DNA from: Negaprion brevirostris
Taxonomy: Eukaryota
Direction: 5' to 3'
DNA length: 64,000 bases
Assembly (NCBI GenBank): GCA_030324005.1
Contig: JARDVH010000193.1
Location: 83,492,325-83,556,324 of the forward strand
This document shows, in pieces, positions 11,323 through 61,859 of this stretch. Positions within the stretch are counted from its first letter, which is position 1, and each line of letters begins with the position of its first letter. The position numbers and the translations under genes are program-made. A model generated the notes under the pieces. That model ran no database searches. It was not told the DNA's origin and saw only the letters and a list, made by a program, of their open reading frames with translations.

Positions 11323-12551
11323 TGAGGATTAGCAATCCTGGAATTACATTTCATGAATTTGGAGATGGCTGTATTTAGAAACAATGTAATTGTGCTGTGT
11401 CAGTAAACTGCAAATTTTCCTGATGAGTGCTTCAACAAATATGTCTTTTTTCAGCAATATTCAAGCTCTGTATTACCAAACAAATATGGATATAAAATTC
11501 ATTTACCTCTTGTCTAACACCCCTTGTAGATTTACACATTAATAGGTTAAATCTGGTGGTTAAAAAAAAATTGTGTACACACTTCATTCAGTGTCAAGGT
11601 CAAAAATTGATGAGGTGTGATGAACATACTCAGATTACAAACGTTCTTAAACAGACACTTTGGAAAAATACCTTCAGGCAGTGTGGTATAGCATAACATT
11701 TGCTGAGCAGTTTCACCCACAGTTAACCTACAATGTAACATTTAAATACAACCTCTGGTTTTGTCACTGTTGTTTAAATGGTTGAGTGACAGATAGGACC
11801 TCTTTCTGCATTGATAGTGGAACAAAGAGAGTAAGAGTCATAAATACATTTTACAGATAAATTGACCATCACGCCTCGCCACATCTCTTCACAGTATTTT
11901 GTGTCACTGTCGACAACTGATGTATTTAACATGTCAGGCCATCAGCAAGAGGCCACCTTGCTCAGACAAGCCACCAGGAGCTGATCTGCAATCACTCAAA
12001 AATGTAAAAGAGGCTGATTTGGAATCATAATTACATTAATTCCAAGGAGTCTGGAATTCCCGTGGTCATTGCCTGATGAGGAGTATTTAAAGTGCAGGTG
12101 GCAATAAATATGATAAAAAAGAATATTGGGAGAAATTAGAAAATCTCAGCACGGGACTGTCAAGCCCAATTTTTGAGGAATGGTATTCTTCAACTGAGTG
12201 ACAGTGGTTCTTTCTACNNNNCAACTCCTCCTTCCAATGATGGTATTCATCTCAAGCTCCTGCATAATCAACACTTGACCTGTCGCTTCACAGGACCAGA
12301 GCAACAGATAAAATGCCAGGATAATTTGGAGCGATCAGTCAAAGCTGTCACTTTAAAGACCAGAGGGATTGCTGTTGGTTTGAGGAGGGCGGGGTTGTAT
12401 TTTTTTGCTGTGTCAATGAAAAAAAATGCATGCCTCTGCATACACGGGTTGGATTACAGATAACTTAGACGTGTTGATAGTTTCCTCACATAGACCATTA
12501 CACAACTGTATCGGAATACAGTTATCTCTAAATTTAGGGACTGTCCCATGT

Positions 12552-12833
12552 GGATGGCATGGTGGCACAGTGGTTAGCATTGCTACCTCACAGTACTAGG
12601 GACCGGGGCTCAATTCTGGCCTTGGGTGACTGTGTGTGGAGTTTACATGTTCTTCCTGCCTCTATGTAGGTTTGCACTGGTTTCATCCTGCAGTCCAAAA
12701 ATGTACAGGTTAGGTGGATTAGCCATGAGCAATGCATGGAGTTACGGGGCTAGGAGTGAGCATAGGAGAGTGATTTTTTTGAAAGGTTAGTACAGACTTG
12801 ATGGGCTAATGGCCTGCTTCTACTCTGTATGGA
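12552..12833 (+). mobile_element. HE1-type V-SINE
   Basis: tRNA-like head GGTGGCACAGTGGTTAGC, V-domain GTGTGGAGTTTACATGTTCT, CR1-like tail GACTTGATGGGCT. Confidence 0.9.
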
Positions 12834-16250: not shown

Positions 16251-16556
16251 AGAAAGCAGTGTCTCTCTGTCTCTGTCTCTCTTCAGAGGCTATCTGAAAG
16301 TTCCAAGACTGGAAAGGCTCAGATATTTGATCAATTGACCAATTCACATAGGTGTTGAAAGCTGCAAATCCAACATCATGTGAGCATATTTGCTTTAATG
16401 CTAACTTAATCTGAAGAAGAATGTATGTCTGTGGGATTGCTTTACATTGTACTAACAGTGATAGCTAGCTGTTTGCAATTATTTTGTGTCATATTTAAGT
16501 CTTGTAATTGATAAAAGTTATGCTAATTCTTTCTGTTATATTCTAACTTTGTTTGG

Positions 16557-16851
16557 GGTGGCACAGTGGTTAGTGCTGCTGCCTCATAGCACCAGGGACC
16601 AGGTTCAATTCCGGCCTTGGGTCTCTGTCTCTGTGGAGTTTGCACTTTCTCCCTGTGTCTGCATGGGTTTCCTCCGGGTGCTCTGGTTTCCTCCCACAGT
16701 CTAAAGATGTGTGGGTTAGGTTGATTGGCCATGATAAATTGACCCGAGTGTCAGAGGGATTAATAGGGTAAATGCGTGGGGTTACGGATGGGATTGTGGT
16801 CATTACAGACTTGATGGGCCAAATGACCTTCTTCTGTACTGTAGGGATTCT
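16557..16851 (+). mobile_element. HE1-type V-SINE
   Basis: Head GGTGGCACAGTGGTTAGTGCTGCTGCCTCA, V-domain, tail GATGGGCCAAATGACCTCTTCTGTACTGTAGGGATTC. Confidence 0.92.
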
Positions 16852-17753
16852 TTGAGTAAGTAAACTGTGTTTGAGAAAGGCTTCCTATTGAGTCACTTGT
16901 ATCATACCTAATGCTCACCTGTGGCAAAACAAATGTAAATTTAGGGTCTCTAACAGTTTGGAGTCTCCGGGCTGGGTCTTAACAAAGGTTAGGCACTAGT
17001 ACACTGGTACAACATGGTGAGCAGCCTTACATCATGGTACATGGCAAAAGAAGACCCTCAATGTTTTGGTCAGATTGCAATGAATCTGAAAACACAGTGT
17101 TGTCACTGTGAATAAAAGCTTTGAAGACACAGTGCCTAGCTAGTTGTGAAGTAAAGAGCTGGTAGCCAACAGATCCCTTGGGGTAAGATTACAGCATCTG
17201 CCAGTTCAGTGAGTGGGACGATTCATCAAGAGGATTGGCACCAGGTTAACTCAGTCAGGAGAGACAAGTGACCAGGGTGTGGGTTGGATAAATAGTGAAC
17301 AATGGAGAGTCGAACAAAGAACAATGCATAAACATCAGGCCACAGAAGGGTGTGACATAATGGTAGCTTTGGGAGTCACTGAGTAATGAATTGAATAAAC
17401 TGCAAAAATGCCATTACTCCAAGGTGCGTTCCAAGCACAACCTGTCTTAATGAATAGTGCTTACGAAAAGCTCACAAAAACAGCCACAGTGGCATTTGTG
17501 CCAGATATTACAGAGGAGAAGGAAGGTCAAAGAGATATTGTCAGAATGCCCCAGTTTGAATTGGAATACAGCTGACATACTATCCAAATTCAAAATGTTT
17601 AAACAACGCAAAGAGCTATGGTTTCTTGATTCAGATGTGTCTGAACCAGATAAGCAAACCATAAAAATTAGCCTAGCAATTAGGAATGAAGGTGCATATA
17701 GACCGAACACATTGGGATTAACAGAAGGGGACTAAGGATCCCTAGGAAATACG

Positions 17754-24900: not shown

Positions 24901-25056
24901 GTTCCCACCTTTGTGTCAATCTTTTTGGCAAACCAATTCAACGAAAGTTTTTTAAAAATGAGGGACAAAGTAAAAGAGGCACTCCCTGAAAGAAGGTGGG
25001 GGGGGCAGGTGATCAAGGATGGATTGGCTGCAAGGGCCTTCTTCTGGTAAAGGGTG

Positions 25057-25200
25057 ATCATGATGTGGAGATGCCAGAGTTGGACTGGGGTAAACACAGT
25101 AAGAAGTCTCACAACACCAGGTTAAAGTCCAACAGGTTTACTTGGTAGTAAACGTCACTAGCTTTCGGAATGCTGTTCCTTCGTCAGGTGAGTGGATGGG
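25057..25200 (-). mobile_element. Penelope-like element fragment carrying a hammerhead
   Basis: Shares CACAACACCAGGTTAAAGTCCAACAGGTTTA with 40748-40875. Confidence 0.7.
25155..25191 (-). ncRNA. Minimal type-I hammerhead ribozyme motif
   Basis: Minus strand reads TCAC-CTGACGA-A-GGAA(CAGCA)TTCC-GAAA-GC-TA-GTGA: stem I TCAC/GTGA, core CUGANGA and GAAA, stem II GGAA/TTCC, palindromic AGCT stem III, CUA cleavage triplet. Confidence 0.7.
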
Positions 25201-28163: not shown

Positions 28164-28189
28164 TTCTCGGTCTTTTGACTAAGATCAAG
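28164..28189 (+). pseudogene. U2 snRNA 5' fragment
   Basis: TTCTCGGTCTTTTGACTAAGATCAAG matches U2 nt ~6-31 (TTCTCGGCCTTTTGGCTAAGATCAAG) at 24/26. No Sm site or 3' half follows. Confidence 0.75.
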
Positions 28190-28210
28190 CATCAGATCAA
28201 ACACAACTAC

Positions 28211-28333
28211 GCATAACCCTGTTGCCTAGTAGCCATTTTCCAGTTTGTCCTGGTAACTCAAATATTGATAATCATTGAACTGCTGTATAATGAAGGCATC
28301 ATGACTGCTGCCAGAATGCTGGGTGTTGGGATT
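28211..28333 (+). repeat. 123-bp near-identical copy of 30949-31071
   Basis: Direct comparison shows 3 substitutions in 123 bp. The copy abuts a 100-N gap. Confidence 0.9.
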
Positions 28334-28730
28334 NNNNNNNNNNNNNNNNNNNNNNNNNNNNNNNNNNNNNNNNNNNNNNNNNNNNNNNNNNNNNNNNNNN
28401 NNNNNNNNNNNNNNNNNNNNNNNNNNNNNNNNNGAGATGGTTTAAGGGTTTGCCCTGTCTACACAGTGCTTTGGCTTTGTAACTCTGAGAAAGGAATATG
28501 TTTTCTTAAAAAAAGCATTGTATGCATTATAAGTTCAAGACCCAGGATATGTCAAGTCCTTCAAATCTGACACATGTCTGGTCCCGAGTTTCCTTATACA
28601 GAGTTTAGTACTTATATATGGAAAGGATTGCCCTTTGTGATCTGGACCATGTTGAGGACTGTCACGCTCTGAAAGCAATACATTTGCAAATCTCCCAAGT
28701 CTTCTGCAGGATCTATGAAGGACAGATATT

Positions 28731-30649: not shown

Positions 30650-31175
30650 CAATGGTCTTCCCAGAGTGGTACCAATCGGTGATGAGCTCTTTTCCTCATT
30701 CCAATTATAGCTATCAACAAGGCAGCATTGACTGCAGCCTTCATTTCCCATGCCTCCTTGTATCTGTGAGTGGATACAATTCAGCAATCAAAGCCAATTT
30801 CCCGTGAATGATCTTCCTCCATTTTCAAGCCAGGGATCCAGTCTCAGACACTTGACCTGCCCTCAGTCTGTGAATAGCATCCCTAGGCACCCCTTGCTGG
30901 CTAATAATATCCTGGAGGTGCACTGGCATTGTGAGTCATATAGTCTGTGCATAACCCCGTTGCCCAGTAGCCATTTTCCAGTTTGTCCTGGTAGCTCAAA
31001 TATTGATAATCATTGAACTGCTGTATAATGAAGGCATCATGACTGCTGCCAGAATGCTGGGTGTTGGGATTGTTATATGTGCTGAGTATGACTGCACAGC
31101 AGTAGTACATCTCTGACTTTTCAAAGCTATGTGTGTGCAGTCCATGGGGAAGCCAGGTATTCTGGTTCAGTCAAT
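30650..31175 (-). mobile_element. PIF/Harbinger transposase (HARBI1-like DDE) remnant
   Basis: Minus strand 'GSSHDAFII' followed, after a frameshift, by 'KWLLGN' and GY. These correspond to the Harbinger motifs PGS.HDAFIL and WLLGD.GYP. Confidence 0.7.
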
Positions 31176-38553: not shown

Positions 38554-38683
38554 AGTTGTAAGCCAGATGGGAGATAAAAATCAACTTTGCCACGGGAAGA
38601 CAAATCTGGACAGGAAGCAAAAATGGGCCGACTTCCTGCTGTCCACAGTGTCTGTGGCCGAATGACTTGCGTGCTGTAACTTT

Positions 38684-39003
38684 GGGCGGTACGGTGGCAC
38701 AGTGGTTAGCATTGCTGCCTCACAGTTCTGAGTACCTGGGTTTAATTCCGGTCTCGGGTCACTGTCTCTGTAGAATTTGCACATTCTCCCAGTGTCTGCG
38801 TGGGCTTCCTCCAGGTGCTCCAGTTTCCTCCCACAGTCCAAAAATGTCTGAGTTATGTGTATTGGCCGTGTGAAATTGACCGTAGTGCCAGGGGGATTAG
38901 CTAGGGTAAATGAGGGTTGTGGGAATAGGGCTTGGGTGGGATTGTGGTTGGTACAGACTCAATGGGCCAAATGGCTTCCTTCTGCATTGTAGCGATTCTA
39001 TGA
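38684..39003 (+). mobile_element. Full-length HE1-type V-SINE
   Basis: GGGCGGTACGGTGGCACAGTGGTTAGC head, V-domain and CR1-type tail ending GATTCTATGA. Confidence 0.92.
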
Positions 39004-39361
39004 ATACCCCATCTCCCCACATCTGCCATATTATATGAGATAACTTGTTTCCTATCATTTCGAACGGGAGTCCTTTCTGGCATCGATCTGGAAAGTCTGT
39101 CCAAAGTTCTACCATTACTTTAGCGTCACTGTAAAGTAGAGCATACATCACTACAACAGAACAGTAGAATCGCAGGGCATTGTTAAGGAGTAATTTTAAT
39201 GGGTGGTACCAAATTAACTATTTCAGATAGAAAACCCCCTCCCCCGACAGCAGTTTGTGGAAAGGACAATTAGGCGGGCTGTATAATGGGGAGGCCATTT
39301 CATTATCACCAGTTGTACACTATTGTCCACAGTTAGAATGACCTTCTGAATGTTCATAAAT

Positions 39362-39890: not shown

Positions 39891-39913
39891 AATAGAGACT
39901 GTGGAATTTATTA

Positions 39914-40158
39914 CCACTGCTGCCTCACAGCACCAGGGACCTGAGTTTGATTCCTGGCTTGGGTCACTGTCTGTGTGGAGTTTGCATCTTCTCCCCATGC
40001 CTGTGTGAGTGCTCCAGTTTCCTCCCACATTCTGAAAGACATGCTGGTTAGGTTCACTGACCCTAACAGGTGCCAGATTGTGGCAACTAGGGGAATTTCA
40101 TTGTAACTTCATTGCAGTGTTAATGTAAACCTTACTTGTGACTAATAAATAAACTATT
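39914..40158 (+). mobile_element. V-SINE with alternative tail
   Basis: CACTGCTGCCTCACAGCACCAGGGACC head, V-domain, tail GTAACTTCATTGCAGTGTTAATGTAA...CTAATAAATAAAC. Confidence 0.88.
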
Positions 40159-40159
40159 A

Positions 40160-40330
40160 CTAAGGGGCAATTTAGCATGGCCAATGCACCTAACCCGGAG
40201 GAGGAAACGGGAGCAAACCCATGCAGACATGGAGAGAATGTGCAAATTTCACACAGGCAGTTACCCAAGCTGGGAATTGAACCCAGGTCCCTGGAGTTGT
40301 GAATCAGCAGCGCCAACCACTGTGCCACCC
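40160..40330 (-). mobile_element. V-SINE 5' half, tail-to-tail with the previous copy
   Basis: Reverse-complemented head (AACCACTGTGCCACC) and V-domain. Confidence 0.88.
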
Positions 40331-40629
40331 ATCAATCTAACTAATACTTGTCTGGTGTGGGCTCCTTCCCCAGTCCCAGTGAGATGAGATCCTGAAGAGT
40401 CCAGTTCTGTAAAATTTCAGGGTGGAAGGAGGGGCAGCAAATTTACCAGGGGAAGAACATAAAATCCAACCTACTGTGTGCTGACCATTAAGCGAAACAT
40501 CGTTTCCACCCGTCCTCCCACACCCTCTCACCCCACTGCCACCACCACCACCACCACTTATAGTCCTCCCTTGGTTCCAGAGCTGGGAGTAAACACTGAA
40601 CAAAGCCCATTATGCTGCTGCATAAAATG

Positions 40630-40748
40630 TTGTGTGATTTCAAGAAGAAATTAGACACCTCTCTTGGGGCAAAAGGGATCAGGGGTTTGGGGGGGAGGAG
40701 GTATCGGGATATTGAAGTTGATTATCAGTCATGATCAAAATGAGTGGC
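40630..40748 (+). mobile_element. CR1 3'UTR fragment
   Basis: TTTCAAGAAGAAATTAGAC...AAAGGGATCAGGGG...ATCAGTCATGATC. Confidence 0.65.
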
Positions 40749-40875
40749 CATGGTGTGGAGATACCCGCATTAGACTGGGGTGGGCACAATAATAAGTTTC
40801 ACAACACCAGGTTAAAGTCCAACAGGTTTATTTGGAATCACAAGCTTTTGGAGCGCTGCTCCTTCATCAGGTGAA
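40748..40875 (-). mobile_element. Penelope-like fragment with mutated hammerhead
   Basis: Same family as 25057-25200. Minus strand TCAC-CTGATGA-A-GGAG(CAGCG)CTCC-AAAA-GCTT-GTGA, with core GAAA changed to AAAA. Confidence 0.7.
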
Positions 40876-40892
40876 CTAATTGTCAGTCAGTC

Positions 40893-41188
40893 GGCTAAGA
40901 TCAAGTATAGTGTGGACATGCTGTACTTGGTTGAAGTCATTAGGTTACATTTTAGTTTCATTTGAAACAATTTTTAAAAGCGGCATCTCAGCCTTTTGGC
41001 TAAGATGCAAATGAGATCAATCCTTGGAGGAGGAGCTACACCTACTCCAATCAGCTTGGGTCATGTAGATCAAGCCCAAGACAGGAGGTGAGAGCCCTGT
41101 CTTGTCAGCTTGGATCAGGAATGTCTCAACTTGTTGGGACTCTGAATTGGACTTGATTGGATTGAATTGGAATAAAAACAAAAAAAAT
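40893..41188 (+). mobile_element. U2 snRNA-containing, poly(A)-tailed putative retroposon
   Basis: U2 nt 19-37 at 40893-40911 (18/19) and U2 nt 4-27 at 40983-41006 (22/24). Several hairpins, TGAATTGGA-like repeats and an A-rich end. Confidence 0.6.
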
Positions 41189-60072: not shown

Positions 60073-60362
60073 ATGGTAGCACAGTGGTTTGCACTGCTAC
60101 CTCAGTACCAGGGGCCCTTGTTCAATTCTAGCATCGGNNNNNNNNNNNNNNNNNNNNNNNNNNNNNNNNNNNNNNNNNNNNNNNNNNNNNNNNNNNNNNN
60201 NNNNNNNNNNNNNNNNNNNNNNATTGGCTGAATTAACCCTAGTGTCATGGGGATTAGCAGGGTAATATGTGGGGTTACGGGAAATAGGGCCTGGGCAGGA
60301 TTATGGTTGGTGCAGACTAAAAGGGCTAAATGGCTTCCTTCTGTACTGTAGGGATTCTAAGA
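60073..60362 (+). mobile_element. HE1-type V-SINE, gapped
   Basis: Head GGTAGCACAGTGGTT and tail CCTTCTGTACTGTAGGGATTCTA. Confidence 0.88.
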
Positions 60363-60874
60363 TATTCCCTTCAACTGCTCCATGTGATAGCGAGTCCCAC
60401 ATTCTAAGCAATCTTTATATAAAAGTGCTTTATGTAAAGGTGAATACCTATTTGATTTTATGATGGCTGCTTTATATCCATAGCCTCTGGGTCTGGTCTT
60501 GCCCACAAGTGGAAATAGTTGGCGGCATTGTTCGACTCAAGACCAGAAACTCTTGCTGGGGGTCAACGGACATTTCCATTTTCTGCCCCTCGACCGCTCC
60601 AATTCCATATTGAGTGGGGGTTTAAATTTCAATGAGTTTCTCTGCATCTTGGCAGGACCTATTCATTACTTCAAACCTGAACTGTGTTCCTGTGGAAGCT
60701 TCTGGACTTCTCATCTCCAAGATCAATGCTTCATAACAGAGGGATGAAAAGACCAGTTATCCACAAAAAAAACTGAAAGATCATCATTTACCACCTATTG
60801 TGGAGTGATGTATTTGGATTTCAAGAACAAATAATACTGGTATCGGTCATTGACTAAAACTGGCTGTAGATAAT

Positions 60875-61430: not shown

Positions 61431-61746
61431 AGAATCGTAGAATCCTACTGTGTAGAAGGGAGCCATTCGGTCCATTGAATCTGCACCAAACACGATCCTA
61501 CCCAGGCCCTATCCTCATAACTCCTTATATTTACCCTAGTTTGTCCCCCTTATACTAAAGAACAATTTAGCATGGCTAATCCACCTAATGCCCACATCTT
61601 TGAACTGTGGGAGGAAACCAGAGCATCCACGCGGACACAGGGAGAATGTGCAAATTCCACACAGGCAGTGACCCAAGCTGGGAATTGAACCCGAGTCCCT
61701 GGTGCTGTGAGGCTGCTGTGCTAACCACTGTGCCACTATGCCACCC
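61431..61746 (-). mobile_element. HE1-type V-SINE
   Basis: Complete reverse-complemented head, V-domain and (TAGAATC) tail. Confidence 0.92.
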
Positions 61747-61859
61747 AAGTATTGGAAAAAAGGATGAAGAGTGAAGGGTTAACCTTGCATCTTCAAACAT
61801 TTATATCTTGAAGTTTGAACATATGTAAACTGAAATACTTCTGACTCTCACCAAAGTAA

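Follow-up and report, generated by a model that had tools for sequence, protein, structure and literature searches.

A dispersed, A-tailed repeat family with U2, U4 and U1 snRNA pieces in the shark Negaprion brevirostris, a probable retroposon

The window analysed here is a 64,000-nt stretch of Negaprion brevirostris DNA (assembly GCA_030324005.1, contig JARDVH010000193.1, positions 83,492,325 to 83,556,324, forward strand). At 40893..41188 on its plus strand lies one 5'-truncated copy of a dispersed, A-tailed family with a unit length of about 310 bp, and a second member of the same family, of the D type, lies further upstream. The features are:

40893..41188, +, whole copy; young subfamily A, 18 nt missing at the 5' end, non-CpG divergence of 3.6% from the subfamily consensus
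40893..40914, +, head remnant, U2 nt 19-40 (19/22), with the branch-point guide region
40915..40932, +, antisense arm, predicted partner of the head (U2 nt 25-40) in a hairpin of 15-16 bp; 0/2000 shuffled arms equal
40933..40956, +, eroded U4 5' stem-loop, assigned through alignment to subfamilies B and C, as the match of the window copy by itself is equalled by 778/1000 shuffles
40967..40980, +, Sm-site-like U-rich stretch; 8-9 nt equal host U4 nt 116-124, by itself not significant
40983..41008, +, inner copy of U2 stem-loop I (U2 nt 7-27), its base stem lengthened; probably where the ancestral element began
41014..41062, +, hairpin unit 1, probably a modified duplicate of U2 nt 24-60
41067..41116, +, hairpin unit 2 with a perfect 9-bp stem; its 3' arm in subfamily C corresponds by alignment to U2 nt 44-60
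41122..41140, +, third hairpin, probably derived from stem-loop IIb of U2 (subfamily C against U2 nt 44-84: 31/41)
41143..41170, +, short repeats resembling TGAATTGGA, probably derived from the Sm-site region of U2 (D-type copies run on into U2 nt 93-143)
41171..41188, +, poly(A) signal AATAAA (41171) and A-tail; no target-site duplication (TSD)
28164..28514, +, second family member, D type, with U2 head, U2-like 3' end and A-tail

The element features sit where the original prediction had placed them. Against the host U2 gene (L031), the head piece matches U2 nt 19-37 at 18/19 positions and the second U2 piece (40983-41006) matches U2 nt 4-27 at 22/24. The motif AGATCAA recurs at 40898, 41014 and 41067, and the hairpins are present, with 9-bp arms starting at 41077 and 41096, TTGGAG at 41024 with CTCCAA at 41045, and GTCTCAA at 41123 with TTGGGAC at 41134. 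The copy is structured, as was claimed (fold of -95.8 kcal/mol, z -3.6; 0/200 shuffles as good). The proposed abrupt break at U2 nt 37, in contrast, is an artefact in the window copy, caused by private substitutions at nt 38 and 40, while the family head reaches nt 40; such a break does exist in a sister subfamily, B37 (11 copies). No Rfam family matches anywhere in the window at gathering score, and on the element U2 alone scores at all (E 0.078).

Other repeats are found in the window. An unrelated, very high-copy repeat at 40746-40877, with many inverted joints and a depth of up to about 20-fold above that of the element, ends 15 nt before the element and has a second copy near 25049-25145. 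Another short interspersed family, which I take to be probably tRNA-derived, occurs in both orientations at 39911-40338, 12551-12742, 16555-16858, 38682-39006, 60073-60365 and 61444-61754. The middle of 28164-28514 is obscured by an N gap, in front of which 123 nt repeat 30949-31071 at 98%, probably through misassembly.

The element had been predicted to be a repeat with the boundaries given above, and a search of its own genome bears this out: it returned 3,486 candidates, and among the 40 that were scored the others are 91-96% identical and have a common 3' end. An exact 18-mer from the element occurs 1,934 times in the genome (reversed control 0), equivalent to at least 1,934 copies. A subfamily C query gave 2,188 candidates. 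Because the 18-mer is retained in only part of the copies (35/50, 12/28 and 7/29 in three search sets), I roughly estimate a total of 3,000-8,000 copies for this assembly with its many gaps. One old copy turned up in fifteen arbitrarily chosen stretches of 10 kb, which amount to 126.7 kb of non-N sequence. Part of the element was present in 20/24 sequencing runs (nine organism codes and unlabelled runs), and the repeat in 4/4 runs examined, where contig depth on the element is about 10^4 times that of the flank, a depth ratio that is not a copy number. Nearly all sampled copies, including the one in the window, are dispersed and lie outside U2 sequence. TSD scores of at least 10 were observed in 7/107 copies (shuffle expectation 0.1), and about 90% of copies have no TSD. 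The 3' flanks of the 107 copies show no base preference, and among the 107 scored flanks, from which L238 was excluded by an N gap, none exceeds 12/18 matches to U2 nt 38-55. Tandem or clustered copies occur at L017/L065, L118, L119 (three copies head-to-tail), L123, L129, L134 and L138, some of them interleaved with LINE 3' ends.

In order to sort subfamilies, I used 156 distinct collected copies, with two ambiguous rows excluded, and four to five subfamilies with units of about 310-380 bp are apparent. Subfamily A, with 62 long copies, has a non-CpG divergence of 4.9%, a value subject to best-hit bias, and of 7.0% in 11 less biased copies; B40 (13 copies) follows with 7.4%, B37 (11 copies) with 7.8% and C (32 copies) with 11.8%, and the D type is known from about six copies. 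The types differ in their snRNA heads. D begins at U2 stem-loop I; C is headed by U1 up to nt 95, less an internal deletion of 11 nt (E 5e-25 against host U1); B37 has the break at nt 37; and the head of A is U2 nt 1-40, identical to the host gene at 40/40 positions (nt 19-40 taken from copies). Of 53 copies, 6 start at U2 nt 1 and a further 9 at nt 4. Double heads occur as well, in L174, with an extra 5' U2 piece (U2 1-51), and in L101, so that snRNA additions at the 5' end are recurrent. From structure and divergence together I infer the order D, C, B, A. The inner U2 piece, which had been suggested to record repeated targeting, is explained more simply as the ancestral 5' end, because the D type begins there.

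The body between the U2 pieces, described as non-U2 in the original prediction, proves upon alignment to the older subfamilies to be degenerate U2 plus an eroded U4 piece. The U4 assignment rests on the subfamily C consensus compared with the host U4 gene: C matches U4 nt 23-47 at 23/25 positions (0/1000 shuffles equal). Subfamily C also has the inner U2 stem-loop, and its 3' part matches U2 nt 44-84 at 31/41 (1/1000 shuffles equal); the D type matches U2 nt 93-143 (0/1000). The window copy aligns to C over 227 nt with 77% matches, and these origins thereby transfer to it. Taken singly, the bodies of A, B40 and the window copy show no significant U2 origin (742-749/1000 shuffles equal), nor is the U4 piece significant in B40 (64/1000), A or the window copy, and Rfam did not detect U4 in any scanned copy. 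The U4 piece may form a kink-turn of the kind bound by 15.5K.

All consensus folds are more stable than shuffled sequences, with z from -4.4 to -6.6 (60 shuffles per consensus). In A and B, the spacer behind the head is predicted to pair with U2 nt 25-40, and the spacer of C, which is another one, has U1 nt 2-19 as its predicted partner; for the C fold, U1 nt 1-11 were supplied from the host gene, and only about 4/32 C copies extend that far. The arm pairing was matched by 0-3 of 2000 shuffles in C, A, B40, B37 and the window copy, compared with 160 and 190 of 2000 when heads and arms were swapped. Arm variants preserve pairing (e.g. T-A 37, T-G 33); in the third hairpin, covariation is mixed (T-A 36, C-G 9, T-G 13, C-A 7, other 2). 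The U2 and U1 regions covered by the arms are the branch-point and 5'-splice-site guides, respectively. On these models, every head is predicted to have its own antisense arm that masks its splicing guide. The arms could also be mechanical fold-back products rather than selected features. Folding of A and B also predicts base pairs between the U2 head and the 5' strand of the U4 piece, and such pairing may account for the decayed U4 3' strand in A. In the C model, about 10 nt in the loop of hairpin 1 are complementary to that of the U1 stem-loop II piece, a possible kissing interaction; the same loop is present in D, where no U1 head is seen.

A small number of copies is associated with U2 genes. 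Initially, I read the data as showing no U2 targeting, since a strict pattern (young tail followed by U2 39-52) had 0 matches, until a looser pattern detected L238, which the strict one had missed because its tail differs by one base. An A-run directly before U2 nt 38-43 onward exists at six places (13 overlapping matches; control 0), preceded by a subfamily A copy at 91% (L238), D copies (L235, L243), LINE 3' ends (L101, L245) and an N gap (L233). An element followed by U2 from nt 38/39 onward occurs in three copies, L238, L235 and L243, and U2 nt 38/39 is the Keno/Utopia site; these three may be insertions in U2 pseudogenes rather than genes. Three further copies directly follow sequence resembling the upstream region of intact U2 genes at 78-89%. 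The first, L103, is a B type with the break at nt 37; the second, L248, has an A-type head with a LINE fragment next to it; the third, L101, has U2 1-39 followed by an A head and lies in an array spacer resembling that of an intact three-gene U2 array. In L103 and L248 other repeats are inserted in the upstream region. The promoter search, with its four matches, is incomplete, as L103 was not among them. In L131, U2 38-53 and a second A-tail follow the element, which is the layout that read-through from a U2-resident master would give. Within 180 kb around the C182 U2 gene, no additional U2 gene or element was found.

The intact array (L036-L038, G000:C157:37354999-37356174) is a tandem of three identical-looking variant U2 genes with a 492-bp period, 84% identical to the main U2. 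Spacers related to it on C9130 and C54127 are interrupted at nt 37-42 by a LINE, the element or poly(A), and in L245 (G000:C54127:84-152, minus strand) the insertion that splits a U2 gene at nt 37, the Keno site, is minimal and consists of hardly anything beyond an A-run. Three divergent U2 genes (L032, L033, L034), about 81% identical to L031 and with one extra A near nt 30, are possibly from another organism; two are on small contigs, and one adjoins what I take to be 5S rRNA sequence.

The neighbouring LINE was studied in 30 of 133 matches, chosen by their zf-RVT domain, which this LINE carries. It has shark homologues, and the best PDB match of a homologue is L1 ORF2p (E 8e-67; R2, E 1e-20); the labels "Tx1" and "Keno-like" for it are tentative ones of mine, based in part on site use. 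In 3/30 LINE loci (L079, L085, L095) the element ends within 15 nt of a LINE end, where about 0.006 would be expected (51 ends, 15 nt, one element per 130 kb). In L095 the element, with its own 12-13-bp TSD, directly follows the LINE tail, while in L085 the LINE, with a short TSD of its own, follows the element tail, and these two insertion orders point to one nicking activity. Two LINE copies (L101, L245) end before U2 nt 38 onward; the LINE is mostly dispersed, with 0/22 of its 3' ends followed by U2 nt 38 onward. No convincing LINE-derived tail was found at the 3' end of the element, and what is shared spans 14 nt at most: subfamily C matches the LINE at 13/14 nt around the poly(A) signal (13/1000 shuffles equal), and the LINE and subfamily A have no significant tail in common (940/1000), so that the partnership rests on adjacency and site use. 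L248 has a weak endonuclease match, with E 0.002 against a local ORF and nothing in Pfam or PDB, and the L248 LINE may be another family. Five extended loci yielded no full-length partner LINE. The long ORF of L107 (G000:C96078:249-4067; an intact frame of 1,273 aa whose motifs resemble those of endonuclease and RT; the contig is small and AT-rich) was considered and rejected, being 20-24% like the partner and hence a distant element, possibly of another family or a contaminant.

The copy number in the thousands, the descent of the parts from U2, U4 and U1 snRNA, the four to five subfamilies, the copies within U2 genes and the contact with the LINE are observed. Beyond this, I consider it fairly probable that this non-coding family is a retroposon which captures U2 promoters, uses an L1/Tx1-type helper and masks its splicing guides. 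The original prediction had offered two options, a SINEU-like shark family or a U2-targeting element co-transcribed from a U2 promoter. A SINEU-like family fits what is observed, and the second option fits those copies that lie at the Keno/Utopia site or behind U2 upstream sequence, but most copies lie elsewhere. I infer transcription and mobilisation along the following lines. A modified U2 gene would have duplicated its hairpin (D type), a U4 stem-loop and a U1 head would then have been acquired (C), and the U1 head would later have been swapped for U2 nt 1-37 or 1-40 (B37, B40, A). Now and then the LINE endonuclease would nick U2 genes at nt 38/39, and RNA polymerase II, starting at the U2 promoter upstream, could then read an element inserted at the nick; transcripts of copies that sit at U2 nt 37-40 would carry just such heads of U2 1-37 and 1-40. 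The AATAAA of the element would serve to polyadenylate the RNA, which would then be copied into sites that are for the most part unrelated. With the guide that pairs with pre-mRNA masked by the antisense arm, the element RNA would not disturb splicing. The U1 head of subfamily C is left unexplained by capture of U2 promoters. A wider reading, in which a lineage of snRNA mimics, descended from a modified U2 gene, swaps U2, U4 and U1 modules, renews its masters through U2 promoters and a U2-targeting LINE, and evolves an arm for each guide so that its RNA does not poison splicing, has in my view somewhat less than an even chance.

Alternatively, the family may be SINEU-like but owe its transcription to read-through from promoters of the host or of repeats unrelated to it; heads would be gained by template switching, and the U2-resident copies would be by-products of the site preference of the helper. 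The available text of Kojima 2015 (PMC4494074) argues the same for crocodilians. Copies in U2 genes are rare, extra 5' U2 pieces such as that of L174 exist, and the U1 head requires either template switching or a master in a U1 gene. However, the head breakpoints of B37 and of A and B40 fall at or beside the very insertion site seen in U2 genes, and two different subfamilies occur in U2 genes with upstream sequence, which makes this reading unlikely. An origin of the copies as retropseudogenes of a variant snRNA gene (a modified U2) that serves the host, and not as a selfish element, would agree with the D type resembling modified U2 up to about nt 150, with the well-retained U4 stem-loop of C and with the stable consensus folds; the successive heads, the erosion of U4 in A and the poly(A) signal before the A-tail fit a turnover of retroposon masters instead, and I regard this origin as improbable. 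Slightly more improbable still is a non-autonomous, internally deleted derivative of a Keno-like LINE with acquired U2 ends: the common U2 site, the direct adjacency and the short match of C around the poly(A) signal speak for it, but the body aligns to snRNAs and not to the examined 1.58-kb 3' part of the LINE. Independent chimeric retrocopies or chance-joined U2 pseudogene fragments, which some double heads and element-LINE junctions might evoke, can practically be dismissed, given the near-identical architecture in 30/30 loci, the diagnostic subfamily positions, the genome-wide matches and the 1,934 copies of the 18-mer.

Among known systems, the crocodilian elements SINEU-1, -2 and -3 are the closest in design. 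According to the available text of Kojima 2015 (PMC4494074), they derive from U1 and U2, none was found outside crocodilians, and their transcription is left open. As far as that text goes, they have in common with the shark family repeated U1/U2 heads, a length below 500 bp, a poly(A) tail, internal oligo-T, variable TSDs, tandem insertions, thousands of copies, no convincing LINE-like tail and a putative Tx1-type partner deduced from common targets; SINEU-3, a rearranged U2 whose 3' end has about 40 unique nt, is similar in outline to the D type. Compared with the same description, the shark family differs by its U4 stem-loop, its U2-traceable body and its head-specific antisense arms, and its copies reside in U2 genes behind upstream sequence, whereas SINEU resides in Mariner-N4. 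It can be placed with SINEU as a structural class, by likeness of design.

The available part of PMC4640811 places the start of Utopia and Keno (Tx1 clade) 3' flanks at U2 nt 39, and a small minority of copies of the element and its neighbouring LINE have the same nt 38/39 3' junction; unlike these elements, the shark family is non-coding and mostly dispersed, and its insertion is not U2-specific. From classical Pol III SINEs it differs by having U1/U2 heads and internal T runs instead of a tRNA, 5S or 7SL head. R2, as cited in the available text of PMC4494074, is promoterless and co-transcribed with 28S rRNA; the shark element may likewise lack a promoter and use that of its target RNA gene, but it is non-autonomous and the promoter would be of the Pol II snRNA type. 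Chimeric retrocopies of the U6-L1 type, as cited in the same portion of that paper, join an snRNA 5' of truncated LINEs, much as in L101, L085 and L248; the shark family, in contrast, is a fixed composite unit amplified from masters. A search of the openly accessible literature found no shark snRNA-derived family and no U4-bearing retroposon, and the available portions of PMC5786205 and PMC5381603 name no additional snRNA-retroposon lineage; the family may already have a name in Repbase or Dfam.

These observations extend the SINEU-type design to cartilaginous fish and add U4 as a source. If true, capture of U2 promoters would explain how promoterless SINEU-type elements get transcribed, and it is directly testable, as the loci behind U2 upstream sequence can be named. 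The head-specific arms suggest that a transcribed, snRNA-derived parasite is constrained not to pair with pre-mRNA. On a practical note, thousands of copies inflate the U2 annotation of shark genomes. Matches to U4 genes or pseudogenes also have element copies and old LINE pieces less than 1.5 kb away at three loci (L114, L115, L110), two of them in the C163 U4 cluster.
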